Source: Phoronis australis (Eukaryota > Animalia > Phoronida). Taken from it: a stretch of 59,178 nt of DNA. How positions within the stretch are numbered: the stretch's first letter is position 1; each line of letters opens with the position of its first letter. The notes beneath the pieces were generated by a model. It made no database searches, was not told the origin of the DNA, and was given only the letters and a program-made list of their open reading frames with translations. A program made the translations under genes and the position numbers. Location of the stretch: the NCBI GenBank assembly GCA_002633005.1, contig NMRA01000109.1:347846-407023 (forward strand), in the 5' to 3' direction. Shown here piece after piece: positions 11,281 to 59,178 of this stretch.

Positions 11281-11374
11281 GTTTTCTAAGCAAAATACGG
11301 TTATTGATTTACGCCGTGATCTGGTTGACCTGGGCCCGGTCTCTAATCTTTGTACTCGAAACGAACTCGAAACT

Positions 11375-12003: not shown

Positions 12004-12059
12004 GTAAGTTTTTAGCAATCAGTTTCTATCAACATCGTTCGGTGATGTTATCCCCACCA

Positions 12060-19465: not shown

Positions 19466-21296
19466 AGTCCTTCTCTCAAACTGCCTATGTGGTTCCAGTA
19501 TCCGAAAATACTTACTACATAAATTCTTATTTTCGACACTCTTTCTTTATATTCTTTTCGCCTTTCTTGCCAAAAGCGATTTTTAACAGTATTTGACCCT
19601 TCTCTCTGAGCGTATGATTACCGGTTGTCATCGGTTATTTCCGTACCCACATTTCCGGGTCATCAGTTCAGGAACTTGTCCTGAACGCTGCCATTTTTTC
19701 CTTGTAACTGAATGTGCTATGGCTTGCTCGAAAAGTCTTCATTATTTTGTTTTATTAGTAATATATCGTGATTCGTTTGCATATGTAGTGTATTTATAGT
19801 TTGTAGTTAGTGGTCGTTGATTTTTTTGGAATGTTACGCGTACTTAGTATGTTAAAATAGCATTGGTGTTTAGTTCCTTACGTAGGCGGGTCGAACCTAG
19901 GAACCAATATGGGTCGAACCAATTTTTTTTCGGTTTTATTTTTTTCCTCGTTTTGAAAAAGTACTTTGCTATCATCGGAAAGGTAGTACATTCTACTCAG
20001 TAAAAATCGAAAAAGTATCAAAATCGGGGCAAGCAGTGTAAAGTTATTGCAAGTTTTGTGGCGAAATTTGGGTCACTTTGTTTGGATCGCGTCGGCCATA
20101 TTGGAGGACAGCGGGATGAGTTACGAGTTTAAAACTTTGTGTAAATTGTTTTCGCCAACAAATTACGGTAAAATTTAGTTAGACATATCTTTACTTACTA
20201 TTCTGCACGATTTAGCAGTGTTCACCAAATTTCAGCCTCGCAGTTGTTACTCATTAAGTGATAAATGTGCTCACAATTCCCGTTGGACTTCGTCTCATTT
20301 CTGGCGGCACCTACAATGTCGACTTTTGCTGAACTGAAAGGCATGTTCAATCGGCTACTTTGTAATTTGTGAAGATTTAACGTTGATACATTTTGACAAA
20401 CGTTGCTACAAAAAAGAAACTTTGTTCAATTTTCGTGTTTTTTGTGTTTGTGGCCAGCGACCAGTTAGGCCTAAGGGTAGTCTTGGCGCAAAGCTGTCTC
20501 CCGTTCAGTAACGCTAGGACCTCGCTAAAAAGCAAGACTTCGCGAGAATACGTGAGATTTCGCCGTGTATTTTGAATAAGAACACGTGACTTTGACTAGG
20601 TTTTAGCTAGGTCCTAGCGTAGGTCCTAGCGTCTACTGAACGCACGCCTGTATAGGCCTACTAACAAGCTGTATTTTGACTATAGTCTTCACTGGTTGCT
20701 GGTGACTGAGGCTAACTAAGGTCTGCCGCGGCAGTGTGACACAGGACTAACCAGCCCGTAATTTCATGCAAGTGTCTGAAACTACCCTTGAATATATGCA
20801 GCATTTATGATTTGACCATTTTACTTCGACAAAACAGCTTGCAACCTGCATGCATTTACCGTTCGCCAGTGTCTGGTCTCGATCGGCACCGGGTCCGATA
20901 GGCTGCGGTCCCGAGTCTGGCAAAATAATTTCTGTCAAAATTTATTCGCCACATTTCTTCAGCAAATTCCATAAAATTGTCCGTAGTTTGATTTTATCAA
21001 AATTAAGGGGCGCTGTCGATTAATTTATCACCGTTTGCTGGCTGGTAACAGTACAGGCACTGCTCCAGTCGCACTGACGGCGTTTTCTCGGCCTGGGTTC
21101 CTGAATGAATTGTACTTCCGGGTTCGCGGCAAGTTCAAAATGGCGGTGGTTCTTCGGGTGCGAATCGTGTGGGGCTCGTTCATTTAAACTTTTTTCGAGT
21201 ACGGATCGTGTATTAGTTATGGGGTAGGTACTTCTTGGATCCTTATAACATCTTCTAACCATGTAATAAGGGTTAACAACGCGTGAGAGAAGGACT
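19466..21296. mobile_element. Kolobok-like non-autonomous DNA transposon
   Basis: TIR AGTCCTTCTCTCA, TTAA TSD (19462-65, 21297-300); empty site with a single TTAA at about 34891 in the paralogous hAT copy. Confidence 0.8.
20497..20647. mobile_element. 151-bp MITE (Harbinger-like, CWG TSD)
   Basis: Subterminal inverted repeats CGTTCAGTA..CGCTAGGACC; flanked by CTG on both sides. Confidence 0.6.
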
Positions 21297-21580
21297 TTAA
21301 TGCACACACATGCCTGCTGTTACATGTATATACAGTGCATGAACTCCAAGTAGGGCTTTCTTGCAGTTTTAAAGTTAGTAAAATACCAGGTACTAGTGAC
21401 CTGTCCAAAGATAGAATGTTTAGTTACAGAATCCTCTACAAATGTTCTTGTCCGCAGTATTGTTCTTGTCCAAGTTACATGATCTGGACTGATATCTATC
21501 AGCAGTTCTGTGTTGTCGAATCCAAGTTTCGGCATCAGGTTGCGGGTAGAACATGCAAAGCGGGGGAAAACAAGCTGAAG

Positions 21581-22920: not shown

Positions 22921-25640
22921 AAAAAGAGTTCAGGTGGCCTGATGCCTTTTGCGGTACATCAGGAGTGATTAGGCCACAAGACCAGGCCCATTACACAAAT
23001 CAGTTCAATTTGACTCATGGGGACACGACATCTCCGGATTCCTCATGGGTAAAATCTTCCAATCTTCCTGTTTGTTTCAGGAAGACATAAAGACTATTAA
23101 ACCTGTATGAACTAACAATGTTAACCGAGCAGGTTATTTGTCTATCAACTAGTAGATTACGGTGTCTATTATAGGCAGGGCAAATCTTCACCAGTTGTTG
23201 AGTCTTAGCTTCCAAGCCTTAGTTGGGATGCAATGAGCATGCCACGTGGCCTGAGATGTCCAGTAATAACCTGGGTCAGCTGTCTTATAACAAACCTATG
23301 CAAATATAACAGTTTCGTTGAACCTTTTGGTTAAATAGGACTTGGAAAAGTTATTTGGTTTGTCTGCAGGCAGAGAGCTTTCTCCATGCATCCAAGGACA
23401 GTTTGCGCACTTAGTGTCTTGCCTTTGCTCTGCAGCACCTATAGGCCACCAGTATGCAAGACTCTGGTACAAAACAGGCATTAATGACTGCTTGGCTGTC
23501 TGAGAGTATGAAGAGTTCCTTGTTTCCAAGGACAGCTTCGTGCTCCCTTGCCAGTTGGGCAACCTTGTGAATGGCAACAATTTCAGCCTGAAAGACTGTA
23601 ACGGTGTTACCCAGTGAGATCCAGCTTTCTTTGTGGTCCCCTGCAAGGTCTTTAAAGTAAATTCCTTATCCTGACTGGTAGTTGTCAAGTTTAGAGCCAT
23701 CAGTGTAACGAACGGACTGTTGGTCATGTAATCAATGATTTCGTGACCATCTCCAATTTCTATCCAAAAGTTATGTTTGTGATTTAGGGTAGTCACTAAA
23801 ATATCACATGGCATTGCCAAAGGTGTTCCAGTTTCTGACATTAACCTGGCTCTCATGAGCAACAGTATCAGTGATTTGCACATTACTCCGTCTCCCTTTA
23901 CGCCGCTGAGGTAAATGTACAAGGGTGGCAAACCAATAAGCATTGCCATTGCAACTGTGGGTGTCCCTAGAAAAGCAGAAGTAAGGCACAAGCAAGCTAA
24001 ACGCTGTATTTGTGTCAGTTTAGTTCTAACAGTGCTCTGTTCAAGAGATGTTATCCATACAGATGCGGCGTAAGCTAACATCGATCTGATAACATCAATG
24101 TATATCCAGAGAGAATTCTTGGGAGAAAGTTCCCAAGTTTTACCGAATACTCGGCAACACCTTATCAGGGCCGACTTGGCCTTGGTTATCTTGTTCATCA
24201 CGTGAAGTGTCCAACAAAGGCGATGGTGGAGATTAACGCCTAGGTAGGTGACTTTTTTCTTGAAGTGGGAGTTCAGTACCATAAAGCTTTAATTGTATTA
24301 CATTCCACTTCCGCTTCCAGGTGAACATGACCCCTTTTATTTCACTGCTATGGATCTCCAAGCCAACCAACTGTCTTGGTCCATCGAATAGCAATATTAA
24401 GTGCCTTCTGGACAACACTGCTGCATGTGCAAGCATCAACACTCGACACACAGAAGACAAGGGTCATTAGCATAGGTCTGTACAACTAGACCTTGCTCTA
24501 TGTTAGCCAACAGCTGCGTAAACAGGAAGTCCATGACCATTTTGATGAGAGCACATGAAGCGGTGCCACCTTATGGAGTACCTCTAGTCAGACAGACAGC
24601 CGCACTACATGTAGCTCAGTCAAGCTTAGCTGTTACATTCTGACTGCTCAGCATGTTGTCAGAATATAGAGTGACACTGTTTTCAGTTGTATTGGTTTGT
24701 TTTGTTTTCTTTTGTTTTGTTTTGTTGTTCTGTTTGATTGACATGACTCCTGAGTTAAGTACAGCGGTGGTGTAATTTGTTTACTACTGATTAGTATGGA
24801 ACTTTCTAGAAGACTGAATTCAGTGCGATGATGAAGTAATTTGTTCACTAGTTTATAGTGTGGAACTTTCTAGAAGACTCTAGCATGGCAGTGATCAATG
24901 CATTAGTATGTGTAGATTCCGGAAAGTTCTGGCATGTGCTTGAATTGATGAAAAGTTGTAGAACAATGCATTAGTATATAAATATACAAGCACATGTCTG
25001 TGAGTCAATTAATCAGAAAAAGCAGTTCAAGAGTTCAGCAGTTGCAGTTAACAGGCATCAGGTTGTTTATTCAGCGAGTGTAACAGTTAATGAAAGTGTC
25101 TCAGAAGTTCACCACAAGTCAAGGCGTCGCTGCGCTGGCTGGAGAGTAGAACAGACATTACGTGAGACTTTTTGTTCGAATAGGATTGTGAACGTACAGT
25201 CGAGATTAATAAAGGATTAACTCGAACCAGTGTTCAGTCTATCATCGCACCGAAAGCTATTAGAACCGGTATGTAACAACCTGCGGCCACCCACACCCGG
25301 GAAAAACGTGACAAATGTACATATTCCAGCTCAAAAGTCCTTTGCCAATCTGAAATTGAACAATTGCATTATAGACAGCATCATGTTTAATGTAGGTGAA
25401 GGCACCGACAATGTCGATGAAAGCGCCAAGAGCAAACATTTTATTGAATACAGCATTTTCTGACCTGGTGATGAAGAGGAGTCTCTGTAGAAAAGCCACC
25501 TCTGTAAACGTACTGATTTCTCAGAATTCTGCTCATCTTGCCTTGCTAAGTGCCACAGAACCAAGACCTTTCAATAAGAAGGAAGTTAGAGTAATAGTAC
25601 TAAAGGATTCAGTTACTAAATCTAATAAAGACACTGCAGT
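22921..25640 (-). mobile_element. LOA/Lian-like non-LTR retrotransposon (RT + RNase H), 5' truncated, decayed
   Basis: TSFLLK, GAFIDIVGAF, RGTP*GG, VTYLGV...GKTWELSPK...IQRLACL..TP, and RNase H ICYTDGSK...VFQAEI (frameshifted). Confidence 0.85.
24657..25313 (+). mobile_element. Solo LTR
   Basis: TGTCA...TGACA termini, 5-bp TSD catgt/aatgt (one mismatch), TATA-like tatataaata at about 24976 and AATAAA at about 25209; splits the LINE RT frame. Confidence 0.75.
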
Positions 25641-35312: not shown

Positions 35313-35549
35313 CTGTTTTAATTCTAGGCGATAGGCAGGGCTTTGGGCGCCTTCTTACCTCTAATTTTATCTCTACATCACTTATTGGGAATGTTGCTAC
35401 CTTTGTATTTGGTTAGGTTCATAGTCTTGATGTTAAATAACGCCTTGATACTGATCTTTCTCTTTGAAGCAAACAACTTACTGGATTCAGATGGCCATCC
35501 CGCAGTTCGTCGGAAGTCAGCTAGGCGGAAAAGTAGGTGTCGTCGTTGA

Positions 35550-40140: not shown

Positions 40141-40360
40141 ATGTATGTTATGGTAATACTTAACAGCGAGCTTGTCTGTACATAATGTATGTTATGGTAA
40201 TACTTAACAGCGAGCTTGTCTGTACATAATGTATGTTATGGTAATACTTAACAGCGAGCTTGTCTGTACATAATGTATGTTATGGTAATACTTAACAGCG
40301 AGCTTGTCTGTACATAATGTATGTTATGGGAATACTTAACAGCGAGCTTGTCTGTACATA
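40141..40360 (+). repeat. Minisatellite, 44 bp x 5
   Basis: atgtatgttatggtaatacttaacagcgagcttgtctgtacata repeated five times, with one substitution in copy 5. Confidence 0.97.
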
Positions 40361-40444
40361 ATAAACAATCGGTGTTACTAACCCAAGTGTCATTAATCAA
40401 GCATCCTTACGAAGCTAAAATCTTTCTTAATCTGTGTTTTACAG

Positions 40445-40474
40445 CTGCAAAGGCGAAAAAAAATCCTAGCGTAG
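40445..40474 (+). CDS. 30-nt microexon (PAKAKKNPSV)
   Basis: tctttcttaatctgtgttttacag acceptor, TAG|gtgagt donor, phase 1-1. Confidence 0.65.
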   Translation: MQRRKKILA

Positions 40475-40883
40475 GTGAGTATTCAAATACGTGTGCATGG
40501 ATCGGGCATGGAGGCGGGTCAATTAGATGTATTTACCAGAATTCGCCGATTTATGATCGACTGATCATTTTTAGAATGCACAAATGCTTGCAACCGAAAG
40601 CTTTTGCAGAAATAAAGTCAGAAAACAAAGGACTATTCTAAAACCCCCTCTAACTCACTTCCCTTCGAACCCTCGACCCACGATCCACGTCTCCTTAACC
40701 CACAGCCCACAACTCCTAGACCCAGAATACAGCTAAATTATTAATATCAATTTTATTTGGTAGTCCTTGTATCCCACTTCCTAATCCCATTATGCCATTT
40801 CTATCGTTGTATGCAATCTACCAGTTTTTATATTAGAAATTTGCTTTTTTCGGTATGCAAAACAATGTCATTGTCTTCGTAAA

Positions 40884-41449
40884 AGAACGGTGCAGGTGGT
40901 CTGATGTCATTTGCGGTGCATCAGACTTGCGCAGGCCTCATGGTTGGGCCCATTGCACAAAACACCTGAGCGAAAGCTCGAGAGCCCAATTATGGCTCCT
41001 CGTGAAGAAAGTTTTCAAGTCTGTCAGTCTCCTTTAGGAAAACGGACAGACGTTTTCACTTGTTGCCATGCACTATATGTTGTAGGCATGTAACAGTGCC
41101 ATCCAGTAGGTTGCCCCTTAACCTATAAAAAGCTGGGCAAGACTCTACCAGGTGTTTAGGAGATTCTACGTCAGTACCACACTCGGGACACCCAGGACTC
41201 CCCATATGCCCAGTAATGTGTCTGTGTCGGGCTAGGTTGCAGTGGCTCGTCAAAATTTGAATGACATGTCTTATACCCAATCTATCTAGACTCAGAAGGT
41301 TTTTTGAACCTTTTAATTCGATCACGTTGGGAAAATACTCCTTGGTCTCTCTGCAGGAGTTAAGTGATGCCCACTGGGCTTCAGACTGGGTATGTACCCA
41401 GTTGCGTATACTCATCCTGCAACATCCGTAAGATACCGGTATAGCAAGG
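40884..41449 (-). mobile_element. 5'-truncated LOA-like LINE (C-terminal CCHC knuckle + 3' UTR)
   Basis: ILTSHCNLARH...CPECGTDVESPKHLVESCP; 7-bp TSD tcgtaaa (40877-83, 41450-56); a homologous empty site lies at about 28955-28985. Confidence 0.85.
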
Positions 41450-43859
41450 TCGTAAACCTTTAAAGGCCTGTAGGAAAAAAAGTAAGAGATCAATAAGTGC
41501 AAAAGTGGATTATCGAAGATATGCCGCTTCAAATAAACTAAAACATTTTTTCTCAGTCTTACCTTTTTCAATATTTGTCTTTGATTTAAAAAAATGCAAA
41601 ATTTGAAAATTTTCGAAGATTTGGTGGGATTTTGTGAATCTAGCCTGTTGGGTAGAATTTCGAAAAGGCTTTTAGAATTTGTTCTCCAATTTTAGCTACT
41701 ACGTCTCGTTTTTGAGTTGTCCGGACTTTCTGATGACGCTGTTCCTTTGCTGACTGAATTTTATGGCTCTTGTTTGTTTTACGTTCTATTAAATACACAC
41801 TATTTCTTACTCATTTCTGTCACCTTCATTCGTCTCATGATTGTTATCATCATGTTCATCATGGGTGCAATAATAATTTTCTTTCTTAATTCCCATTCCC
41901 GTTTATTTTTTGTAATTTTGGCGAAGAGCTGCTCCTCTGAGCGCTTTCATTATTTTGTGTCTGCTTTGCACGTTCATTTGATTAACATGATATTACATGT
42001 AACCTTCGTATTAGCTGGTCGTCCTCACTGAGCATTACTGTCCAAGTAACAGGCTCTGTCCATATTGAGAGACGGTACGGACCACGACATCGCAAGATCA
42101 CATCGTTAAAAGATTACTGTTTTGACGATTTCAACCAATGGTCGTCCTGTTTCCTGTTAATTTATCATCAGTTTCAAACCTGAAAGATAAAGGCAGCATT
42201 CAATTAAAAACTTCTATACTCTGGATGTTATGGTTGTTGGTGGGCAGTCTTTCCTACCGTCGTCGTGTAACTCGCCAAAAGCACAGGTCACGCTTGCCTG
42301 TTTAGCATACTTTCTTTTGAGGGTTGTCGAAGGTTATAGGGCAATATAGACCGGCAGTCCAGAGAACTTAGCATAGATGAACTAGGTTCCAACATCTGAC
42401 CACGGGAGCATTTAGAATTTCCCTCAGTATGCCCAGAAATGGACGTCTGCCGTTGTCTACACTCTGGTTGTGACCCCTGGGGGCCTTGTAAAGGGCCCAA
42501 AAATGAGCTAGATTAGATATTCGAGGTAACGGCCAAAACTAATTTAAAACGAACGACTGTACCGCACGGAACACCGAATGACCCATGACAGACAAATTGT
42601 ACTCTGGAATGGGTCCGGCAGAAACCAAAAAAATGACCCCCCCCCCCAAAAAAAGGGCTAGCACAAACATTCGAGGTACCACAAAAAAAAAACAATTCCA
42701 TGTGATTAAATACATGTCAGAGATCTTCATACCTCTCAAGGCGCTGTTCTAATGCCATTGTTATACACGTCGAATATTCATCTCCACTAACGCGTACTAT
42801 TAGTTTGAAATTATGTGTGCGTTCAAAAGTTGTTCCGAGTTACAAAATATAGTGTTCGAATGCCAGTATGCTATTTCAAGAACAGAGCCTGGAGGTGGCT
42901 CGTGTAGTTTCATTTTTGATTGTCAGTAGTGAACGGGTGCGTCTCTTTAAAGAGAAGGTTCATTGTTCTGGAGGTTCGATAGTCCGAACTATTTCAAGTA
43001 AGGCAAGGAAATACAGAAGGGTTCTATACATGTACGTGTAGTTCAAAGGGTTAGAAGACTGAAGTCGTGATAGTTTGAATGCCCCGTGGTCTAAATGGTC
43101 CATCATACAATTGTTCGCTCATCAAAAATACATGTACCAGGAATTTCCAAAAACAGGCCTTCGAGAAGACCAAAAAGAAACTGGTTCGGGAGGACAACAA
43201 CCATTTCCAAAACGATGGTTGAAATGACTTGCTGCCACATGACGACCCACGCCCGTCACTTGGATCTCGCAAGTTGAACAATAGCTTGAGAAATCCATAC
43301 GACATCATTTGGCATGGGTGATTTTCTTGCCAAAGCTCAAGCAGCGCGGAGTCAAATTGAGAAAATCGTAAGAGTAGGCAAAATCAACTTCATAAGGAAA
43401 GTACTACAAAAATATCGAAGGCATTTGTTTGGTCTGAGTGTAAGCTCCCTATCTCTTTTAAATTCAATGCCATTTGTTGTAAATTAAATTCAGTTGAATA
43501 CGAGCAGGATTTTATGTTTGATTAACAGTACAAATTGACATCTCTCACCTAGTACCCAACTTCCCATGCAGGCTTTAGCGGAATGAGACCATTATAATTG
43601 ATTCAGTATTTTTCAAGACTGTTTCGTAAAATTTGTTAAGTCGGCATCAGATCAAACATGCAATATATTGAATGATGTCCCTTTCTGCTGCACGAAAGAA
43701 CGGGTTTCTTTCAGGTTGCTATTACAAGTCACGTTTTCTTGTGATTTTTGAACCATGTATGTTCATTATAATAAATAAACACAACATGTACAGCTTATGC
43801 TCCTGAAACATTTGAAATTTCTTAACTGAGCAATTTATTTCGTAATCTTTGTTTTACAG

Positions 43860-43880
43860 TTTTCAAAGTGGGCATGCAGT
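43860..43880 (+). CDS. 21-nt microexon (VFKVGMQ)
   Basis: atctttgttttacag acceptor, T|gtgagt donor, phase 1-1. Confidence 0.65.
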
Positions 43881-44068
43881 GTGAGTAACAACTATACTTT
43901 ATTGCCAACAATCAGATGATGCATTTCGATCCAAATCATTTACAGTTATAGAAATAAAGTGAAAAATCAACTTGAAGAATATTTACCATATTTAAATGCA
44001 TGTGTATTGTTAAGCTGTGAGATAATACTTAAAATGTGTTTCTAAATTTGCGTATGGACGTTTTACAG

Positions 44069-44080
44069 ATTTTAGAGATG
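44069..44080 (+). CDS. 12-nt microexon (YFRD)
   Basis: ttttacag acceptor, G|gtaagc donor, phase 1-1. Confidence 0.6.
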
Positions 44081-44953
44081 GTAAGCATTTATTGCCAGGT
44101 TAAATGAAACTTTTGCAAGAAAGCTTCTACGTTATATTTTTGTTTGTTGTATTTTATGTTGTTTGCACTCTACTGTTCGCATCTCTCAACCAATCAACAT
44201 CAAATAATAAACATGCAAGTCTCATTATCAATCAAACACCTTGAGAGGCCAGGTGGCCTAATGGGTTTCTGGGAACTCCCCTACATGAAAATAGGATCAA
44301 TTGATTAATGTTTGAACCCAGAGTTGCTTTTAACCGAAGACACTTACTCTGGAAAGATTTATTCCGGTTACATATCGAAATTGTGTTTGGCCCTTGCTCG
44401 ACCAATGTATTGAAACCATGACATCCTGAATTGTGCCCTGGCACTCCGACCAATGGGCTAAAGAGACGAACCTAGAAACAAGCGATGCAGGTGGCTGCGG
44501 TATCCCAAAAACAACGCAAATACCTGACTTTCCAAATACTACCACCATATTTAAATTAAGCATGCCGCCAGACAGCAATCAGGTCTTTGGTGCACAGACG
44601 TTTAGCGGCACGTACAGATCCCGTGAAATGCAGACCGGAGATTAAAACCTAGTGGTACACCTTCCCTGTTATATTAGCATATTATATATTTATTTAATAT
44701 AGTGACGTAAGGGTGCAAGTAAATAAATTCTCGAAGACAGACTATTCACCACCCCCCCCCCCCCCNGTAGGATGTAGTGTACTAATACATGTAGCTTGCA
44801 GAGAAATCGAAACTCTTGAAGTATCCGTGGATGAAGAACATTTCCCAATGCAAGGACGAATCCTTGGCCGCATGGTCAGTAGTTGTGAGATGTAAACAGG
44901 TGAATTTCGATACCAGAAGATCTGAACTAGGTATTGTGTTTTAGAGATCTTAA

Positions 44954-46858
44954 AGAAGAATGTCACCCAAAAACAACCAATTTTGTATCAATTTAGATCG
45001 AGTAGTTTCAATCGATAACAGCAAATACAACTCTTTTACTTGACATCTGACTGCAGACGGCGTGTTAAAATTAACCAATGAGTTCAGATGTTCGAATGCC
45101 GTCTGTTTTACACCAACAAATATCAAAATTCGATTGAAAACCCTTCAAAATACATCGAGTTATTAAACAAACGTGTTATTTGATTTCGCTGTTACGAACT
45201 TTAGGTTATTGGACGTACCGTAGCCTACAGAGTTCGGTAGGGCCAATTTACCGCAAGGCCGGGCGAGGGAGTTTGAGGTTTGGATGGTAATAAATTTTAA
45301 TTATTTTTCCGTGAAATACAGGCTGGAGAACATAGCTGCGTGTTGTTCTAAACACGCAAAAGACTTGCTATCCCGGCCAGTGGCTCGGAACCCGATCAGA
45401 TCCGTCGCGGCCGAACTGAACACACCACAATCATAAACCAGCCAAAGTTACAAACTAAGTTTCCAGTCACGAAAAGGCTATGCTAATGAGCCAAAGAAAT
45501 AATGTGCACGTGATTATTTTGGTGAATTAGACGCAAAACTGCAAATCTACTTACTGCATGTAGCTCGTAGGGGGCCGCAAAGTCAGGTTACCCTTCCACA
45601 CAAATGTCAGGACAAAAGTTGTACACTAACAATGATTCGAATAATGTATATGAATATATAAATAACGATTTCCCTAACATTTGACATAGCATATAAAACG
45701 GAGTAATTGTTTCACATGACAGCTTTCTATCAGCAAACACTGAGTCAGCATGCGCACACATGGCCTCGGTGCCCGCGGTTAATTAGCCGGTTTATTGCAT
45801 CTAAAGCCGGTATCTCGGTGATTTATTCATTGATGGCTTCTCAAAACATTTGCACTCACGAACACTTCAAGGTATTACAAATTGTAGGTAATGAGACAGA
45901 CTTTGTTTCAGTTTGATATAAGCATTGGTTAGGGTGATAATAATTCATTTTGCAACAGAACGCACAATATGAACGTGCTCAACGTGGCAATCCCGACTTA
46001 GACGAGCGCTCATCCGACGAAGACTTCACAGGTCGATTGCTAGATTTCTCAGGAATACACTGGTCAAGAAATCATAGAGAGACTCCGTGAAAGTGCACAG
46101 AAAACGGAACACATGAATAGCTCCGAAAAACGTTTGCACTTATGGTGTCTTTAGCGAGCTAACTCCACGATAATGGAACGACTGACCCTTGCGTTTGCTG
46201 CCACAAAATTCCGCAATTGAAACGAATTCCTGGAGAAGCGCAGGTTTGTCTCACATACCATCCTGATTTTGCACCGCATCTAAGGCGTGCTTACGACATT
46301 TTTAGGGCTGAGAAAAAAGTGACGAAAACAGCCTTCAGCCGGAGGACCAAACAGAGGATCAACGAAAAAGACAGTCATCAAACAGGTTATATAAAACGTT
46401 ATGTTCTCACGCCTTGAATCAATTGTAATTGTTTGGGTTTTCATGGCCATGTACAATTCTCCATAATCAAAGACTGATCAACAACCGATCCGACGAAGTG
46501 CAGTCCACTGACAGACGCGGAGAAGTTTCAGGGTCTCATGCTTGGTATTAACGGCGTGCTTTTCATTCTTCAGTAACACTAGCCACTTCCAAAGCATTAT
46601 GGGCTCTCGAGGAAATCGAAAACACGATATACCCGATTTCCTCGCAGCTTCATGGTTCGCACCAGAGGGAACAAGACACCACACCATAGCAACAATCACT
46701 CTGCGTAGAACCACTGACGTCTCTGCAGCGATTCTCACCTTCCTCACATGTTAACGCGACACCTCTCGGCGAGGTAAGATCGACCGTGAAAGAGGTGATG
46801 CCAAAATAAACCGATTAAGACGTTAAAAAAGACTAATTAAACCGGGTGGCATTCTCCT
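44954..46858 (-). mobile_element. Kolobok DNA transposon derivative with THAP-domain relic
   Basis: TTAA TSDs, TIR AGAAGAATGTCACCC / AGGAGAATGCCACCC; MVWCLVP...GISCFRFP...W...RVC..HF THAP signature at about 46495-46687. Confidence 0.8.
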
Positions 46859-47539
46859 TTAACCTAATTAAACAACGAGAGGGGTTGCCAATGTGAATTA
46901 CTCATCCTTAAATTTAATAAACCTACAGGAAAAGTATTTAAGGGGTTTAAAATCACCAATTTCATATCAAAATCGCCCAAAACAACCCTATCGGTCGATT
47001 AGTTTTTCATATTAGAGCAACCGCAAATGCTATCTCACGATATGTTAATTAGTTGAGTTACGTGCATTTATTAGTCGATAACTACCTGATATCGGGGCAA
47101 CGAATTGATCTATTGTAAACGAGCGAAAAATCAGGTGACTAGGAAAAGTTAAAGTGGAACTTGCAAGCTCATCCCTTATGTCGGTGGTTGTTTGATCAAA
47201 TTAGTTACAAACGTAACACATAGCGACGGTGTGAATTTGAAGTACGTATACAGTTTCCGAATACTTTTAGAAGGAGTTTACTGTCAACCGTGTGCAATAA
47301 TTTTCGTGACATTATGTTGGGGAATAACAATGCATGATGCGAACTTCGTGAGCCCCCATCTGACGTCATGAGTGCAAGGTCAACTACATGTGTTTACAGA
47401 ATTTTTTGGTTTTCACATTTTCAAGTTGTCAATGCACACAACTGCATTTTTAGCGTAGATGATATTCAAGTAGTAATGTCGTTTAATTCCTGTTCTACAT
47501 TAGCATAGCGAATTTGAAATGACGGTTAAGGCCGAGGTT

Positions 47540-48400
47540 AAGGGGTTATTCCAATGCAGCTGTTGCGGTGGTGGTTTGAATGCGTGTGCGAGCCGAAAAC
47601 GGTGTTAGAGAGAAAGTGGCGTCTTTGAGGGGAAATGAGCAGAAGGTACTGATTCTGAGCAAAAACATCCCCCGTTCTTGAACAATTTGGCTATGGATGT
47701 GCAAGATGACTTTAAAGCCAATTGGCAATGTTATATATGTTTTTGGTTTCAAAGGAGAAACCGGCAAGTATTCAAGAAAGATCAAGCAGATTGGAGAACA
47801 TTTTGTTGCGAGGCTAAAAAAATGACGAGTAATTGTGACTTCGGAACCAAGCAACAGAAAAACAAACAGATCAGGGATCAGGCCATCAATCAATGTAAGC
47901 CATTACGATTTCGTCGTAAAGTGCAACAGGAAAGTCCCGGGTTCACTGTGAACAAATTACTGAACATTGCTAAGTTACAGGAAGTCGTTGATTGACAGCT
48001 AGTCAAAGGGAAATAAGTAATAACAGTCCCAGTGCCCCCTTTTAAAGACTGGGGGTGATCACCAAGGATACTCATAAAGGAAAAGAGAGCACCAGCATGT
48101 TTTTCTTAAGGACAGACGTTTAGGCCACATTCGCACGGATAACTGCTGTCGAGTGAGTCTTTTTGCTGTTGAGTGTGAAACAAAGTTAAAGATACAGAGA
48201 ACAATGGAAAAACTGAATGTGGTGCTTCAAACTCTGTTTAGCAGCTGTAGACAACCAACGGTTATGACAACCGATAATGAACCACATTTTAGCGAATGTG
48301 TTTCAGCACTTGTATGCAACCCATTAGCATACAGTACAGCACAGGCAATTCACACCGTTATATCCGGTTGGAAACGCCGAGGTGAAACGCGAGAGGGAGG
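47540..48400 (+). mobile_element. Gypsy LTR-retrotransposon relic (gag + integrase fragments)
   Basis: NCDFG...QIRDQ...RRKVQQE..FTVNKLLNIA (gag-like) and LQTLFSS..QP..TTDNEPHF (integrase-like); internal pol deleted. Confidence 0.65.
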
Positions 48401-49439
48401 ACTGCATACTTTACTTTTCCAATATTCAGCGCTAATGTTTTGCCGCAATTTGCGTGTCAGAAGAAGACTGACCTTTGTCTTAGTGATAAGCTTGTTTTTA
48501 ATGAATATTTGTGTACTTAAAGTTAGCACTTGCTTGACATGGTCCATTAGGTCTGGACAGAGATAATGTAATCTGTGTAGAATGGAGTAGCAAACATGGT
48601 TGACTACACGGCACTTGTCGTTATGAACAATCTCTATTCCATTCCGTTCGTATCCTCGGAACAAATTTCTACTCTAAGTAGAACTTTGGTAAAGCAACTG
48701 AATGCGAAATGTGTTTAATAGACACTCGATATTTCAAAATATACGGATTGAAGTTTGTCTCATACACATTGAATTTGACGAGGAAAATAGGGCCATGTAA
48801 TAAACTTTTCCAAATTCACCTCCCGTACTACTTCAACACGAAAAGTTCAAAACGTATGTCAATATCGGCTCAAAGTCGTTAACCGGTTCGATCACCAAAC
48901 TTTCGGAAAATAGTTTAAAGTACTACAATTATAACAGTGTAAATAACGCTCAACATACAATCAGGTCTCAATCATAACATATGGAGCAGGACTGCTAATA
49001 TATGATAGTTCTGTCTCAGTTATCATTTGTTCAACATTTTATCGTCTGCAACTCAGGCACCCATCCTTCGGTAACAACAATATCAAATGCTGTCGTTATT
49101 TAACTATTTTTAGGAGATGTTAAGAGTTCAATGAAAAGTTACCCTTGTTTTCATCTTTGTTATCTCTTTTCAAGTTATAAATCGTCACATTTAAAACCGT
49201 TTGTTTTACTAGAGAAAACTTGCAGCCTAGCGCACAAGTACATCCACATAGAATTTGATCCGCCACGTGAACAGCCTGGGTCAACTATTTAAAAAATCTG
49301 CGGAAAATGTAAGAAACTTAGGAATTCGAAGCGTATGGGTAAATACAAACGTACCTCGATTGGCGTACACGAAGCAATATCCCACTCAACATTATTCCGC
49401 GTATAGACCCAGACCGAAGGTCTCGGTCGATACAAGTAA

Positions 49440-50589
49440 TAATGGCTCGGAACCCTGGCAATCAGGCCTGTCACGGCCGCCGGGACTGGTACGAACATAA
49501 ACCAGCTTGAGTTGGAAACTAAACCTCCAGTCACGAAAAGACTATAATAGTGAGCCAAATAAATAACGCGCACGTAATTATTTATGTGAATTAGCCACGA
49601 AACTGGAAATCTATTTACTTGTTGGGGGTCCGCGAAGTCGGGTTCCCCTTCCACAGACCGTCAGGGCAAAGGTTGTACAGTAACAATGATTTGAATAATG
49701 TATTTGTATTTCTAATTAAAGATTTCCCTAACATGTGACCATACCATATAAAATCGAGTAATTGTTTCACAACAGCTTTCTGTCAGCAAACACTGAATTA
49801 GCATGCGCTCACACGGCCTCGGTGCCCGGTCAATTACTGTACCTTTGTTGCCGGCATCAAAGGCCGGCCGGGTAACGTAGTGGTTTATTCATTGCTGGCT
49901 TCTCAAAACATTTGCACTCACGAGCACTCCAAGGCATAAAATATTGTATCTAATGAGACAGACTTTGGTTCAGTTCCGTATAAGCAATGGTTAGCATGAG
50001 AACAATTCATATGCATGGCAACTCGCCTGGCGCCAATCCGACTTAGTCAAGAGCTCATCCGACGAAGACTTCACCGGTCGGATCGTTAGGTTTCACAGGC
50101 TTTCAGTTCGAACCGGAATACACTGATCAAGAAATACTAGAGAGGCGCCGTGAACATGCACAGGCAACGGAAGGTATGGATAGTTCTTTGGTAAGCCGGA
50201 ATTCGTCAGAGAAATCACTGTGGACGAAATGTCAGCCCAGAACAGATACGGAGATTTTTCACGGCCTCATACTTGCTATTAACAGCTTACCTTTCATTCT
50301 TCACTACCGTGAGCCACTTGCTAAGCATTTCGGGCTCTCGAGGAAGTCGAAAAACGATATACCCGCTTTCTTCGCAGCTTCATAGTTCGCACAAGCGGGA
50401 ACGATGCACCGCAATATAGCGGCATTCACTCTGCAGGCGAACCACCGAGGTCGCTACGTTTTTTCTCACCTTCCTTACAGGTTAACGCGACACCTCTCGG
50501 CAAGGTGAGGTCGACCGTATAAGAGGCGATGTGGATATAGACCGATTAAGACAGTAAAAAAGACTAATTAAATCGGGTGGCATTCTCCT
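49440..50589 (-). mobile_element. Second, partial copy of the THAP-Kolobok element
   Basis: Direct diverged repeat of 45380-46858 ending cgggtggcattctcct plus TTAA; retains CIVPACAN..AKKAGISFF. Confidence 0.8.
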
Positions 50590-51690
50590 TTAAGGGATTG
50601 TTTTTTAGATCTTCGTTGTAGAATCAACGTCCATGTTAAACAGTCTAGTGTGATTGTCTTGCCATTTCTTATCTAGTTAGTAGCACTTGCGCTTGTAATT
50701 GTGATTATGTCGTAGTACTGTAGTGTTCCGTATAATAGTTATTTATCCGTGATGTTTGATAGTGTGTTGACTGATCTATAAATGTCGTATTTTGATGCGT
50801 GGAGATATAGTTTTGTGGAAAAATTAAGCATGATAGGCTCAAAGCTCACGGGTTGCAACTCATTTAAATGCGATTCCTGCAATCATGTTAGAAGATGTGA
50901 CAGCGCACGTTTTCGGTCAGCTGGAATCGTAAATGTCTGTTAGAAATCAAAATTATCTTATCAGACAGTGTTCAAATGACACGACCTCTGTTATGACCAC
51001 CATTTTTTCCTCGCATAGTAGAATGTGTGTATGAAAGTCAACAATGCAGCAAACACTCGATCGGGTGGCAAATGTTGCAATTCCGTCTTAACTCCGTCGC
51101 AAATTGACGTCTCTTTCATCAGAATTGGAAATTGTGTTGGGACAATAACTTAATTGGACGAAATATAACTCAAATTTCTTTTTTATTCCACATAATCTTG
51201 CTTAGTTGAGTTTCAAATAAATTCTCGTTTAAACACATTTGTAACTTAGATAAAGTATTAGAAAATGAAAGTTCTCTAAATGACGAGCTAGCTACTGTCC
51301 ATGACTGGCTGGTTCACAATAAACTAATGAACTCTCTGTTAACGTTAGTAAAACCATGTTTATGCTGTTGAGAACCTAGCAGAAAGTAAAACAATAAAAC
51401 TTGTCTCTTTCTACCAACGTTTTCTTAGTCCAAATTGTCGACAACTTTAAAAACTTGGGCCTCATTTTAGATCCCAACCTGAAATTTAATATCCATTTAG
51501 TAAACGTCACAAAGAAATTGTAAAGAAAATTGTCGGTTTTACGCATCCAAAGCATTTTTTAATTTCAAGATATATGTAGGTCAATAAAACAACAAGAATG
51601 AATCAACTGAAATTCTCGAATATAATAACGTCCTTCGTCAACAGAAACAAAGTAAAATCAAACACTATATGACAACTGACATGTAAGATG

Positions 51691-52815
51691 CACAGGCGCT
51701 TGGGTTTATCGCAAATGACGTCACTAAATAATATATATAAGAAAACATAAAGGTTGGGCACTTAAACTTTGCCAAGCCGAGGCTCCCAACTTCAACGGTC
51801 CAAAATCCAAATAAAATCTGCGTGCACCTCCCTTAGCCTGGTATTGCATAAACATTCAAAGCCTTATCTTTCCTAGATCCCATTTAACTGTCTTCGTGAG
51901 TGGTGAAGTGGCGATGGAATATCCAAAACAATCTCAAAACTCTGAATTCAAGGACCTGAAATAGTAAACATGGCGGATTTCAGTTGTGCTTCAACTTGTA
52001 CGCCTGTCGTAGGTGAAACTTCGAGTTTGCGCAAGCAACCTATATTTCAAATTCAATAATTCTAATCCAAAACTCAACTATTGAGAATGTTAAAGTTAGT
52101 ATTTTAATGATTATTTGTAACTTTATTCCACTGACGGCTCATTTTAGCCCTTAACTTAGAAATTTATTACATAAACTGGTGTATCTTGTTTCTCATCTTG
52201 ACATAACGCACTTTTTTGATTGAAACACAACTTACTCGTCCAGGAAACGCAGTCCGTGCAAGTATTACAATGCGCGTGGCCGACGAGTTAACTCAATGGT
52301 TTTGGCCAAAAGTAAAACCTTCATAGGAAATCACAGTACACAAAAACTTCGCATATCAATACAGTATCAGGATAATTTATATTTGACACAAATATGTGAG
52401 TAATTACATTTATTTGGCAAGTGCTCTCTGCTTCTCATGATCAAGTAGTCGAGGGATTGACGATGAAAGCCGCGCGAAATTAGACCGTGGCTTTCGGATT
52501 TAGCTCGGGAGCGTCCGTTAAAAACCCGGATGTGCGAAGACCGTCTGCCATGACATCACGGAATCAGGTCCTTGAATTTGTGATTTTGGTATTCTTTTGG
52601 CATTGTTGTCGCCAAATCACCACTCGAAGGCAATTTGAAGAGATCAAATGAAAGAAGGTATTCTAAGAGTTGTTCGATGCTAGTTTCGTGGAGTTCCATG
52701 CACATTTGAGTAGAAAATTTTTAGGAAACAAATTTCGAGTGTCCAACCTTTATGTTTTCTTATATATATATATATTATTGAGTGACGTCATTTGCGATAA
52801 ACCCAAGCGCCTGTG
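51691..52815. mobile_element. Non-autonomous TIR element with 8-bp TSD (P-element/hAT-like)
   Basis: TIR CACAGGCGCTTGGGTTTATCGCAAATGACGTCACT (about 80 bp near-perfect, degenerate to about 270 bp); TSD gtaagatg at 51683-90 and 52816-23. Confidence 0.85.
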
Positions 52816-55668
52816 GTAAGATGTAGCGTAATGAATATGATACATTGTTGCGGAAATAGTTAAATGATATCATTTAAGAAGTTTTTTATGTTTAATCCAT
52901 GAGGTTCTAGTGTATTGAGCTTTTCTATCCAAAAATTTTCTCTTTTGAGTCTATGAGGTGTACTGGGGTGTTGGAGATTTTCTATTATTTGTACAGAACG
53001 ATCTTGAAGATTATGGTTTTTGGAATTGAAATGATTACCTATAGTATCAGAAATGTTTTATGTATTATGTTAAATCTATGATTACGAAATCGAGTTTGTA
53101 GATTATGTTGAGTTTGTCATACGTATTGGATAGAACATTTTTTACATGTTACAAGGTAAATAATATTGTTGGAGGTGCAATCAGAGTAATGCTTTATTTC
53201 AAAGTTGTCATTGATTCGGGAAGACTGGAAAAAAGTGCTATCGTTGATAAAGTTACACATTTTACACCTAATTTTGTTACCTTGTGTGTTGCCAATAGGT
53301 TTGTCAGTTTGATGTATATTGTCGATATTGGCTTTAACTAATTTTTGTTAGATTTTTACATTTTCTCCAAGAAATTATAGGCGGATGAGGAAATAGGTTT
53401 TTCATTTGAGGGGAAATATGCAGCGTGAAGAGATGTTTTCTGAAGACGTGGCTAATTCAGTTTAAACATGGATTGGACATAGTTATGAATGGTATTCTAT
53501 TAGTAGTATTGCCTTTTGTTTTAGATCCTTTGTCAAACTGTTTGTGTATAAGATGTAAGGGGAAATGACGTTGAACTAGATAGTGCTTGAGTTCTTTTAA
53601 ACGATTATCAAAGGAAGTTTCTTCTGAACAAATGCGTCGAATTCTTAGGGCAAGGCTATATGGAAGGCTTTTTTGCAATGAAAGGGATGACACGAGTGAT
53701 ATGACAGATATTGGTGTTTGTCAGTTTCTTTACAGAATAAGTGAGTTTCAACTTTATCATTACTAAGGATTATCGTTACATCTAAAAATGAGACTTTATT
53801 TTGAGAAATGTCATGAATGAACTTTATAGTATGGTGAAATTTGTTCATATTTTCTAAAAAATACATGTAATTTTTGTGAGCCATGGGTCCAGATCATAAA
53901 AATGTCATCAATGTACCTTAGCCACAGAAGAGGATTTTCAGAGCAGGATTTGATGAAGTTGTTTTTAAGATTTCCCATAAGAATATTGGTAAAAGTAGGA
54001 GCAACCCTAGTGCCCATAGCTGTGCCTAATATTTGGAGATAGTGATTATTATTAAAGGTAAAATGATTCATGGTAAGTACATGTTCAAGAAGAGAGCGAA
54101 TAAAAGATGTAGGCACATTAGGATTATTACGGTGACTAAGAAACTTGGTAGTATAGAGGCTTCTATGCCTTCATGTTGAGGAATATTAGTGTATAAGCTT
54201 TTAACATCAAGAGTTACGAGAAGGGCATTTTTAGGTATATCACTGCTGTTTTTAATTATATTAAGAAAATGATTGTATCTTTAACATACGAAGGAAGAGT
54301 GGGGACAAATTGCTGAAGATGGTAGTCGGCAAACTGAGAATTTTTTTCTGTAGGGCAGTTGTTGCGGGCTATAACTGGGCGTCCATGATTGCCTACTTTG
54401 TGGATTTTAGGAAAGAGATAAAAGCGACTTGGTTGAGCATCATTATGAATGAGGTAGTTTTTGGTGTTTTTGTCAATGTGACCTAAATGGAAAGCATTCA
54501 AAAGAGTTTTAGTTATAAGGCTGATATGTTTTGTGTTGGGTTATTATCTAAAAGTTTGTAGTATGCTGTGTCATTAAGTTGTCGGAGAGCCTCGTCAATA
54601 TATTTCTGCTTGTCCATTATAACAACTGCTGATCCTTTATCAGCTGGTTTAATTATGATTTCTTTGTTTTTAGCGAGATTTGTGAGGGCATCTTTTTCGG
54701 ACTTAGTAATATATATTAGTAGGTACGCTTTTTGTTATTCATAACGTCACATTCGAGGGCATGGTTTTGACTTTTAGGTGGATTCCATTTGCTTTTTTCT
54801 TGAAAGGATTAATTTCTAAAGGGAAGTTCTAGTTTTCATCTTTGGTGGGATTGTGAAAATATGCTGCCAATCTAAGACGTCTAGCGAACGTGTAAATATC
54901 AATTAGTTATTCATCTTTGTCAATATTAGTTTTCGTTGGACAGAAGTTAAGTCCTTTAGAAAGTAGGCTAACCTCACTATCAGGTTATGATTGATAAATT
55001 AACTACGTTTGTTTGTTTCGCATGTTATTGTTTTCCAAGTAATTGGTCTACGGAACCTTCTGGTGCGTTTTACTTTTTTATGGTGTCGTTGGTATTATCT
55101 GCAGGACCGTAGATGACGGTGGTAGGAATAGGTCGAAACGAAGTCGTTGTAGATGTCTTAGAGCATTTGTTCTTTCCTTTGTTCTTGTGGTGCCGTACTT
55201 TTTTCAAATTAGTGTGGCCGTTCTTGGGTGCGTTGAATTGTGCAATGTTGTCTTCACTTTGGGATTCATGTAGAGGCTCGAATCTGTAGGTGGTAGAGAT
55301 TACTTCATCTGATGTATACGACATATATTTGTTGTAGAATTGTTTTTGCCGTTTGATTTTCCAGTTACTTTAATCCATCAACTTTATCTTGGACATCAGC
55401 TGTGATAGATTTTTCTTTTGGAGGAGGTGTTGAGCACGTGTCTTCTATTGTTTGAATGAGATAGTTATTTGGAGCGTGTTTGCTGTCCAACAGGTTGAAA
55501 TGGTGGTTGCGGTGTAGAAGTAATATGGGCTTGCTGTTGATATTCTCTGAGGTGTATTTAATCCAACGTATTTTATTTCTAATAGTAGTGTTGACATAGA
55601 TGTCTCTATGAAAAAGGTACAAGTTGCGAATATTTCATATAGTGTTTGATTTTACTTTATTTCTGTTT

Positions 55669-55706
55669 CTGTTGACGAAGGACGTTATTACATCCGAAAA
55701 TTTCAG
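55669..55706 (+). ncRNA. Minimal hammerhead-ribozyme-like motif in the Penelope terminal repeat
   Basis: ctg-TTGACGA-a-ggacg(ttatta)catcc-GAAA-attt-cag; core has U instead of C3. A sense-orientation copy at about 51607-51644 (minus strand) is more degenerate. Confidence 0.5.
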
Positions 55707-56319
55707 TTGATCCATTCTTGTTGTTTTATTTACCTATTCATAATCTACATTTAGTGAAACAACAGTATCCTTAAGAAGATCTGGATCGCCTTATTTAGTT
55801 TCAGATTTATTTTCTACTTTATTTAATTTCAACACACTGAAAACACTTCATCATTCTATCATTCAGCCCCATATTGATTATTGTTAGCCGGTGTGGGTAT
55901 ATACCAGCGACACACTTACAAGCAACGTCCGGGTAATTCAAAATACAGCCGCCAGGGATAACCTGGGTACCAGAATTAGGAATACCGAGTCAACATCTTG
56001 TACTTCAAGCTTGAATCATGAAAGTAAAACAAAGAAACAAGTGACTCTGTATGCTTCATATGCAGAGCTGCAAATCCAATTGCAGTCAAGCTGTATACTC
56101 AATTTCCAAGCATGCCAACTTTTTCCATGCAGTGCGGCTTATTCTAAAGTGACGAATGAGTCCATTCCGGGCCTGAAACAGATTGTTATTGCAATTCATA
56201 ATTTGTTGGACTTACTGAACATTATGCTTGTCACTATAACAAAGTGCACTACTATGAATGTACATGTCGTATTTACAAAGGTAAACACAACAATTCATTT
56301 CTTAATGTATGATTTATAG

Positions 56320-56343
56320 GTGATGAAGTACACTGGTTCAAAG
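56320..56343 (+). CDS. 24-nt microexon (GDEVHWFK)
   Basis: cttaat branch-like motif, tttatag acceptor, AAG|gtaagt donor, phase 1-1. Confidence 0.75.
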
Positions 56344-56501
56344 GTAAGTATTTCATATTCCACAGTTTCAAAATAAGAATGACCAATGGAACAAGGGCAG
56401 TCATCAACGAAAAATTGACTAAATATTGCCAAATTCAACTTACTTTTATATAGTTCTTTCTGAGCGTAGCGATCACAAAAAGTAACAAATAATCTTGATT
56501 G

Positions 56502-56535
56502 TTTTCTGTTCTGTTCTGTTCTGTTCTGTTCTGTT
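56502..56535 (+). repeat. (TTCTG)n microsatellite
   Basis: About six TTCTG units directly upstream of the 56550 acceptor. Confidence 0.9.
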
Positions 56536-56549
56536 TAACGTTTATAAAG

Positions 56550-56575
56550 GTGCTGAAGGCTACAAATACTTTACA
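56550..56575 (+). CDS. 26-nt microexon (GAEGYKYFT)
   Basis: Pyrimidine tract plus aag acceptor, A|gtaagt donor, phase 1-0. Confidence 0.62.
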
Positions 56576-57038
56576 GTAAGTTTGCGGTCTTAAGCACATC
56601 CCTTCTGAATGTGAAAAAGCGGTTTTGTAGAGTACGCAAACACTTCTCAATCAACAAAATGTTTGTTGGAAGCGTTACTCAATCTGCTCCTTGGCTCTGA
56701 AAGCGAAGCCAGGAATTACACGCTTTATAATTTTGTGACAATGTCTGCCCACCTTATGCACCTAAAACAGAATCACACTTCCTCTCTTCGTCTTCTTAGT
56801 GGTGTATATTTCAAATGCCCACATTTTTGCACATTTTATTAAAGCTATTGACAAAGTCTGAACAATGAAGATGTGAATCGTTCTTTCCCAAAACAATCCA
56901 TGCGTTATGGTAGCTGTTTAGAGGAAATGGGAAATATAACGTACAGTAGAATTGTATTTTGCTTATTTGTGTCCCGTATGGTTTCAAATTATCCATTGTT
57001 TATACATATATCTTATACAACGTGTGTGTATCCACCAG

Positions 57039-57061
57039 TGGTTACCCTATTGAGATTAGTG
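57039..57061 (+). CDS. 23-nt microexon (xGYPIEIS)
   Basis: tccaccag acceptor, G|gtatgt donor, phase 2-1; carries the hemopexin GYPxxIS motif. Confidence 0.62.
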
Positions 57062-57834
57062 GTATGTAAAATTATTTGAACGTGGGCGAAGCCCAAATCC
57101 TTTTGCATGTCACAAATAGAGACATAATAGCATACTGGTAAAAACACGTACGTTATTTAACGCATTTACGCTATATGCCCCGATGAGGTCTCTTTAAAGA
57201 AGCAGGTTTATATAGATTGCTCTGCTTGTTTTTGTGACGTTTGCCATCTTTTATCAATGATGATTGCAGGTTGCGTGAAACGTATACGTGTAGGCAATGT
57301 ATTTTATGAATGAATTTTTGCAGCCTGCATGACACGGCAGTTCAAGCTGTATTTCAGAGCAGCTACAGACTTGGGGTGCATAACTGTTATTTTCAGTATT
57401 TTCGTCAGTGTTAAACCTGAAATCTATTGCTAAGTTAAAGTTTGCACACATTTTTGACGGTTTTCTTGATTTTCTTGAGTAATAACAGCAGAACACCCAG
57501 ACTTTGCGGCTGATGCACGTTCGCACGCTTCCTAAAAATGCTCCTTGTGCGTACTTCTTATCATTTTTAGGTGCAAAATATTCAGAAATTTATCATAAAA
57601 TTGACAAAAATACAGTGTTTACAGTAGTAGCAGATTTGCTTTTGGGCTAGGCGTATTTTGATTTTTTGAGAATGAATTTTAAATTGTCTCATATTTGACC
57701 GTAGAGAACCTTATCTGGCTTACTGCGACGGGTGACCAAAAGGAGTCATGGATTGGTACTGTTTATTGCTTTTCTCTGAATCAAATTATATTGATGAAAT
57801 GTCGAGATTTTTGTGCTTTAAGTGTTCTCTTCAG

Positions 57835-57849
57835 CTGCAAATTTTCAAG
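57835..57849 (+). CDS. 15-nt microexon (AANFQ-G)
   Basis: gttctcttcag acceptor, AAG|gtatat donor, phase 1-1; completes GYPIEISAANFQG. Confidence 0.55.
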
Positions 57850-58080
57850 GTATATGATGACAAAGTGTCAACAATATTTTTATTACACTTTTTCGTTTAG
57901 TTTTGAAAACGCATATCATAGTATTGTCATGCGAAAATATTGCGCACGGAGCTAAACCCAAAGTCATGCTATTTATCCCATACGCGCTAAATCTGACGAG
58001 GGAAATTCGGCCATGTAATAAAGTTTTCCGCATTCACCTCCCGCACTACTTCAACAGCGACCTCTGACATGGAAAGTTAA

Positions 58081-59178
58081 AGTCCTTGTCTCACGCGTTG
58101 TTAACCCTTATTACATGGTTAGAAGATGTTATAAGGATCCAAGAAGTACCTACCCCATAACTAATACACGATCCGTACTCGAAAACAGTTTAAATGAACG
58201 CGCCACTCACGATTCGCACCCGAAGAAACACCGCCATTTTGAACTTGCCGCGAACCCGGAAGTACAATTCATTCAGGAACCCAGGCCGAGAAAACGCCGT
58301 CAGTGCGACTGGAGCAGTGCCTGTACTGTTACCAGCCAGCAAACGGGGATAAAAAAAATCGACAGCGCGTCTTAATTTTGATAAAATCAAACTACGGACA
58401 ATTTTATGGAATTTGCTGAAGAAATGTGGCGAATAAATTTTGACAGAAATTATTTTGCTAGACTCGGGACCGCAGCCTATCGATCGGGACCCGGTGCGGA
58501 TCGAGACCAGACACTGGCGAACGGTAAATGCATGCGGTTGCAAGCTGTTTTGTCGAAGTAAAATGGTCAAATCATAAATGCTGCATATATTCAAGGGTAG
58601 TTTCAGACACTTGCATGAAATTACGGGCTGGTTAGTCCTGTGTCACACTGCCGCGGCAGACCTTAGTTAGCCTCAGTCACCAGCTACCAGTGAAGACATA
58701 GTCAAAATACAGCTTGTTAGTAGGCCTATGCAGCCTCCCGTTCAGTAGCGCTAGGACCTCGCTATGAAGCAAGACTTAGCGAGATTACGTGAGATATTGC
58801 CGTGTATTTTAAATGAGAACATGTGACTTTGACTAGGATTTTGCAAGGTTCTAGCGTAGGTCCTAGCGTCTACTAAACGCACGCCAGCTTTGCGCCAAGA
58901 CTACCCTTAGGCCTAACTGGTCGCTGGCCACAAACACAAAAACACGAAAATTTAACAAAGTTTCTTTTTTGTAGCAACGTTTGTCAAAATGTATCAACGT
59001 TAAGTCTTCACAAATTACAAAGTAGCCGATTGAACATGCCTTTCAGTTCAGCAAAAGTCGACATTGTAGGTGCCGCCAGAAATGAGACGAAGTCCAACGG
59101 GAATGTGAGCACATTTATCTCTTAATGAGTAACAACTGCGAGGCTGAAATTTGGTGAACACTGTGGAATCGTGCAGAA
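58081..59178. mobile_element. Second copy (inverted, runs off window) of Kolobok-like element 19466-21296
   Basis: Starts TTAA|AGTCCTTGTCTCACG; close reverse complement of 20201-21296. Confidence 0.9.

Follow-up and report, generated by a model that had tools for sequence, protein, structure and literature searches.

Long runs of microexons are known from the proteins of the schistosome micro-exon genes (MEG), which are secreted by way of a signal peptide and form isoform pools through exon skipping, and single microexons are known as regulated inserts in loops. Hemopexin repeats (PF00045), which form the propellers of matrix metalloproteinases (MMP), vitronectin and hemopexin, are encoded in known genes by one or two ordinary exons and not by eight tiny ones; four repeats close the propeller, usually with a disulfide, and MMP genes carry a phase-1 intron inside the FKG motif. 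In schistosome MEG, exons that are very short and mostly symmetric follow one another in a run, with long introns between them (10.1101/2023.06.21.545858), and VAL-6 is described as an ordinary gene coupled to a MEG-like part (PMC4350168). Srrm3/4 (eMIC) neural microexons are characterized by distant branch and pyrimidine signals and by UGC between branch point and AG in 74-79% of cases, UGC being not obligatory (10.1101/2024.09.17.613571). Our analysis of a 59,178-nt stretch of the phoronid Phoronis australis (assembly GCA_002633005.1, contig NMRA01000109.1, positions 347,846 to 407,023, forward strand; hereafter the window, with position 1 at its first letter) points to a TSP1-like/kringle gene that probably continues into a real chain of microexons. 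The reading in full, an expressed plus-strand gene with a TSP1-like module, a kringle, an exon at 35470 and then a microexon chain encoding a divergent hemopexin-like blade, is given an even chance of being correct.

The seven tiny segments proposed by the first-pass annotation were all found to be AG/GT-bounded at their positions and in their proposed phases, with lengths of 30, 21, 12, 24, 26, 23 and 15 nt, and five of the seven are symmetric, that is multiples of 3, as had been claimed. Together they spread 151 coding bases over 17,405. Splice sites were scored with approximate matrices, from which the ranks of sites given here derive, and motif ranks refer to an acceptor profile described below; segments are named by their first position.

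40445-40474, plus strand: microexon candidate 1, 30 nt, phase 1-1, basic; acceptor motif rank 1 of 6508; donor in the top 0.1%
43860-43880, plus strand: microexon candidate 2, 21 nt, phase 1-1; acceptor with 2 mismatches in 22 to that of 40445, motif rank 1 of 6508
44069-44080, plus strand: microexon candidate 3, 12 nt, phase 1-1; motif rank 8 of 6508; donor in the top 0.4%
56320-56343, plus strand: microexon candidate 4, 24 nt, phase 1-1, ending in WFK(G); acceptor with 4 mismatches in 22 to that of 40445, motif rank 1 of 6508; donor in the top 0.1%
56550-56575, plus strand: microexon candidate 5, 26 nt, phase 1-0; donor in the top 1%, acceptor in the top 7%; motif rank 727 of 6508
56576-57038: gap of 463 nt, in which a bridging exon of 14-23 nt in phase 0-2 is required
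57039-57061, plus strand: microexon candidate 6, 23 nt, phase 2-1, reading GYP..IS; donor in the top 0.7%; acceptor poor (top 31% of AG sites), motif rank 2646 of 6508
57835-57849, plus strand: microexon candidate 7, 15 nt, phase 1-1; acceptor in the top 2.7%, donor in the top 3.5%; motif rank 35 of 6508

In six of the seven the acceptor is within the top 7% and the donor within the top 3.5%, the exception being 57039. Support is uneven, strong for 40445, 43860, 56320 and 44069 and moderate for 57835 and 56550, and the case for 57039 leans on its donor plus the GYP..IS reading. Part of the claim of a stop-free chain was upheld: the first five segments are open with phases 1-1-1-1-1-0, and splicing 56575 directly to 57039 gives a stop.

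In layout the nearest precedent is offered by schistosome MEG and VAL-6, with which the locus shares a run of tiny, mostly symmetric exons, long introns and an ordinary-gene part; two sequence forms with many amino-acid changes, described below for the kringle, are a further likeness to MEG. Unlike in MEG, where most of the coding region lies in very small symmetric exons, only 151 nt lie here in tiny exons versus 558-732 nt in domain exons of 63-303 nt; the introns are as long as 12-18 kb, what the tiny exons encode would be a folded module, and skipping, a feature of MEG, would be no more than a suggestion here. The lengths of six of the seven segments fall within the 3-27 nt of Srrm3/4 microexons. 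Unlike the latter, the segments form a consecutive chain and not single inserts, four of the seven have branch-like sites at -15 to -18, and UGC lies within 30 nt in only two of the seven. No description of a microexon-coded hemopexin repeat was found in a literature search outside which most subscription papers lay: 'hemopexin' with 'microexon' returned nothing related by title, and microexon with propeller, among the papers listed, nothing on topic by title or start of abstract.

The evidence that the segments exceed chance comes from their acceptors and from the lengths of candidates called blind. The 22 bases before 40445 recur before 43860 and 56320, whereas the next best plus-strand match has 7 mismatches, and among 28,441 pairs of good acceptors only five pairs differ at no more than four positions, two of which are of named segments. 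When each acceptor was scored with a profile of the other six against 6508 AG sites on both strands, the ranks were 1, 1, 1, 8, 35, 727 and 2646. Acceptors verified by reads fall outside the top 25 for this motif, which argues that the motif is more than the generic splice consensus; since the flanks beyond it are unlike, the segments do not stem from copies of a single dispersed repeat. The first-pass annotation had chosen its sites for their splice-site look, so some circularity enters these ranks. A strong donor follows each copy of the motif at a multiple of 3, as is the case for only 2.1% of AG sites. Judged on generic splice scores alone, the excess over chance is modest, with 12 small-exon candidates in 35533-59178 versus 7.2 ± 3.0 (maximum 17) in 40 Markov simulations and three top-class candidates, one of them a repeat copy, versus 0.4 ± 0.5 (maximum 2). 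Nine of the 12 candidates called blind are multiples of 3 (p 0.004), versus 8 of 20 in control regions. A higher-scoring exon candidate at 50481-50504 was rejected as a copy of a repeat. From the sequence we judge the microexon chain to be quite probably real, counting the case in which its tail is not hemopexin-like, and at least four or five of the segments are likely to be microexons.

For the hemopexin likeness of the joined tail, profiles were built from Pfam-confirmed hemopexin repeats and not from Pfam's own PF00045 model, the Pfam cut-off of which is 21.3 bits. A narrow profile gave the tail about 4 bits; a profile of 121 repeats gave it 5.9 bits, by an ungapped match to positions 13-42 in the register of the first-pass annotation (19 of 3000 shuffles as high, 2719 scored). 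Addition of two proteins, P0134 and P0223, raised the score to 7.7 bits (10 of 3000 shuffles as high), and a hemopexin repeat of P0134, taken as an independent target, aligns to the tail in that register, a score reached by 4 of 2000 shuffles. The best gap, of 7 residues, would set the spacing from FKG to GYP at 18, as in 68 of 87 true repeats, where 16-19 residues are expected. As a GYP segment 57039 ranks first of 380 small-exon candidates, and its G[YF]P..[IL][ST] motif occurs nowhere else in the six frames of 59 kb; the other segments are unremarkable for their strands, and the first five alone reach 1.4-2.2 bits. In a blind chain search the region scored higher than all 60 simulations and all 4 control regions. 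Like a hemopexin repeat, the predicted tail carries FKG, GYP..IS and the final aromatic-x-Gly in the right order; unlike one, it has no DAA, GY stands for YW and F for the final W, its score is far lower, and only a single repeat is present in the window, which ends 1.3 kb after 57849.

A number of results speak against this reading. Local scores of 4-8 bits lie below the PF00045 cut-off, and the glocal score of 19 (8 of 12,000 shuffles) compares with at least 38 for 114 true repeats. The DAA motif of the first strand and Trp residues are absent from the tail, KVG standing at the place of DAA, and position 13 of the profile is where local alignments begin. In their genomic order six pieces rank only 43rd of 720 permutations, and the blind chain search used 40445, 43860 and 56320 in another register and with other pieces, one of them in a repeat. 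Hemopexin was already in mind when the segments were picked, which makes the shuffle p-values too favourable, and the length of the gap was set post hoc. The search for a bridging exon in the gap came up empty, none of 13 open candidates having two good sites, and 56550 and 57039 do not carry the common acceptor motif. The seven junctions and the end of the 35470 exon are predictions from sequence and not from reads, and the searches reported below returned no homologue with the architecture of this gene. What stands of the proposed hemopexin blade is a weak ungapped match above chance and the first rank of 57039; what does not is a score anywhere near those of true repeats, the DAA strand, and recovery of the proposed chain by the blind search. 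Whether the segments encode a divergent hemopexin blade is about evenly balanced: the predicted tail resembles such a blade and is not assignable as a member of PF00045.

Only one candidate in the gap has the required size of 14-23 nt, with poor sites on both sides, and the gap contains no GC donor. A 112-nt phase-0 exon at 56950-57061 would make a bridge unnecessary, and was rejected since its acceptor is only in the top 75%; two further candidates with fair acceptors, of 2 nt at 56800 and of 11 nt at 56845, were rejected for weak donors and too short spacing.

The expressed part of the gene was defined with RNA reads from four runs (X1-X4), mapped on 17150-17850 with about 18-19% of each raw run used.

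17337-17639, plus strand: kringle exon, phase 1-1; PF00051 at 56.4 bits versus a cut-off of 34.3 (E 4e-15); expressed, with both boundaries defined by reads
4450-4641, plus strand: TSP1-like exon, 192 nt, phase 1-1; last 30 nt joined to the kringle by reads, acceptor at 4450 predicted
35470-35532, plus strand: exon after the kringle, start defined by reads, 3' end predicted; 63 nt in phase 1-1 if the donor at 35533 is used; basic linker
697-870, plus strand: candidate upstream exon, 174 nt, phase 1-1, with six Cys; predicted from the sequence, the frame being open and the splice scores good

Depth over the kringle exon was about 100x in X1, 90x in X2 and 2x in X3, with none in X4; coverage began and ended sharply, and the reads were oriented as those of a plus-strand transcript would be in the usual stranded library. 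The loose ends of reads entering the exon (82 + 53, agreement 0.99) match 4620-4639, showing the join 4641-17337. The first-pass annotation had spliced the kringle directly onto 40445; instead, reads leaving 17639 (76 in X1, 60 in X2) enter an exon that it had missed, beginning at 35470, and a direct join accounts for at most about 1-8% of them. The 35470 exon has a phase-1 donor after 35532, use of which would restore the originally proposed frame. Behind the kringle the loose ends of X2 match 35470 exactly, and the X1 consensus is a diverged form of the same exon, absent from the window, in which 8 of 30 letters differ; the agreement of 0.86 and 0.89 there is explained by two forms at 40-50%, other joins making up at most about 1-8%. 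X1 and X2 each carry two kringle forms, also at 40-50%, with 11 changed codons, 8 of them nonsynonymous (pN/pS 0.68), on the basis of which positive selection is not claimed. The two forms of the kringle and next exon represent either an allele that has diverged deeply or a second copy of the gene. In all four runs a short piece of intronic repeat at 17701-17738 attracted RNA reads from elsewhere.

The TSP1-like exon has the W..WS.C and R.R.C motifs and scores 10.9 bits on TSP1_spondin versus a cut-off of 41 (Pfam E 0.59), its best PDB matches being the TSP1 repeats of C6/C8, which are weak (E 0.16-0.62). The end of 697-870 resembles the kringle end, with only 3.3 bits on the kringle profile, and this exon matched no Pfam family and nothing in the Atlas. 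No signal or first exon was found in 1-4449, and the first (signal) exon is probably located ahead of the window. Between 697 and 56575, nine exons would chain without a stop into 281 residues, eight of the nine in phase 1-1, and a basic run with 9 K+R in 23 residues would cross the 35532/40445 join.

Homologue searches gave little. With the kringle, longer proteins yielded one match among four candidates, at 40%, and the Atlas generic kringles only; the TSP1-like exon gave none. Metagenome contigs gave one locus of 83 stretches, over 23 residues only, no close relative was present among the best 150 of 990 matches in 1.84 billion representative sequences, and Rfam gave 0 matches. Ciona 'plasminogen-like' proteins (P0173) have TSP1 beside a kringle, as here, and end in a trypsin domain, unlike here; P0134, with hemopexin and four kringles, likewise combines kringle and hemopexin repeats in one chain and lacks TSP1. 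Both show about 39% identity, in the kringles only, and neither is an orthologue. P0134 was the only one of 151 kringle proteins examined to contain hemopexin repeats. P0134 and P0223 are unnamed ENA proteins of 1268-1284 residues, rich in N and K, in which four kringles are flanked on either side by hemopexin repeats; their composition might, at a guess, point to a giant virus. Hemopexin reading frames also occur on a contig of a bacterial bin (L003, G003:C335); their close relatives are many and look animal, and the contig is possibly misbinned host DNA.

Several alternatives have to be set against a gene with a hemopexin-like microexon tail. The first four or five segments may be real microexons of some other short beta-hairpin or low-complexity tail, 57039 and 57835 not both being exons and hemopexin having been fitted by eye. 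The acceptor motif occurs mainly at 40445, 43860, 44069 and 56320, the first five segments score low by themselves, 43860 and 44069 together also fit the FKG..YWRY positions of the profile, which makes the register ambiguous, and the bridge was not found. Yet 57039, with the sole GYP-type motif in six frames and its top-0.7% donor, lies on the right strand 463 nt after the 56550 segment, and the alignment to P0134 keeps to one register. We hold this explanation to be possible and rather doubtful. That the named segments are chance AG..GT pairs of AT-rich introns, strung together by the annotator, is improbable, given a common 22-nt acceptor motif amid unlike flanks, a strong donor at a multiple of 3 after each copy, and the excess of symmetric candidates; what can be said for it is that the 12 candidates lie within the simulated range, that 1-2 of 60 simulations scored as high as the best chain from the proposed set, and that the false candidate at 50481, higher in score, sits in a repeat.

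The kringle gene might also end in the 35470 exon, in which case the segments would belong to another gene or be what is left of an abandoned tail. Without use of the donor at 35533 the frame of that exon runs on to a TGA at 35547-35549, 15 nt past the donor; a missing bridge could be a lesion, and the introns are full of mobile-element debris. But this donor is the best near the exon, in the top 2% of GT sites and in the needed phase, neither AATAAA nor ATTAAA occurs within 4 kb past the alternative stop, no convincing first exon lies between 35550 and 40444, and the splice sites of the segments look intact. An early end is considered improbable.

In the preferred reading, that of one gene continuing into the hemopexin-like tail, a candidate Cys-rich module would be followed by the TSP1-like module, the kringle, a basic linker over two exons and a blade in eight pieces, one of them unseen. 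The donor at 35533 would be used, the 35470 exon being then spliced to the chain, and all seven segments would be retained in the transcript, with no skipping. Exons this short could be defined by the spliceosome through their strong donors and their compact acceptors, which have a branch-like TAAT at -18; the compact acceptors, the branch-like sites at -15 to -18 and UGC in only two of seven segments fit constitutive inclusion better than regulated skipping. Loss of one strand would be expected to break or unfold a propeller blade, and the combinatorial skipped isoforms suggested earlier appear unlikely. Acceptors this similar point to a chain that expanded as a unit of acceptor plus exon was duplicated again and again, or to one common splicing element. 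Further blades may lie beyond the window, and the product might be a secreted binding or adhesion protein. A more far-reaching and improbable extension is a whole four-bladed propeller made, one strand at a time, from about 30 microexons that arose by serial duplication on a fast-diverging TSP1-kringle protein, in which strand skipping would produce MEG-like binding variants in an animal other than a schistosome.

Its spliced domain exons and the debris of mobile elements mark the window as animal DNA. Repeats and mobile elements surround the segments. A 44-nt minisatellite (40141-40362, 5 copies, 99% identical) ends 82 nt before the first, and one of two inverted mobile-element copies (20201-21300 and 58077-59178, 96-99% identical) lies just after the last. 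An element that includes a THAP-like frame (46481-46750, E 3e-4) is present in two copies, at 45427-46862 and 49491-50593, each holding a strong decoy exon (46729-46773 and 50481-50504). A broken reverse-transcriptase element (53457-55634, minus strand, RVT_1 E 5.5e-5) lies in the 12-kb intron between segments 3 and 4, and other reverse-transcriptase-like debris is found at 23296-25520 and 41056-41691.

If the reading holds, this gene would present a folded module cut into approximately one strand per exon behind near-identical acceptors, and a natural test of how the spliceosome handles consecutive exons of 12-30 nt across introns of up to 12 kb. Annotation and short-read assembly would truncate such genes, which fits the lack of database relatives and is not shown by that lack. 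The locus would thereby test whether protein domains can be built or rebuilt by microexon duplication.

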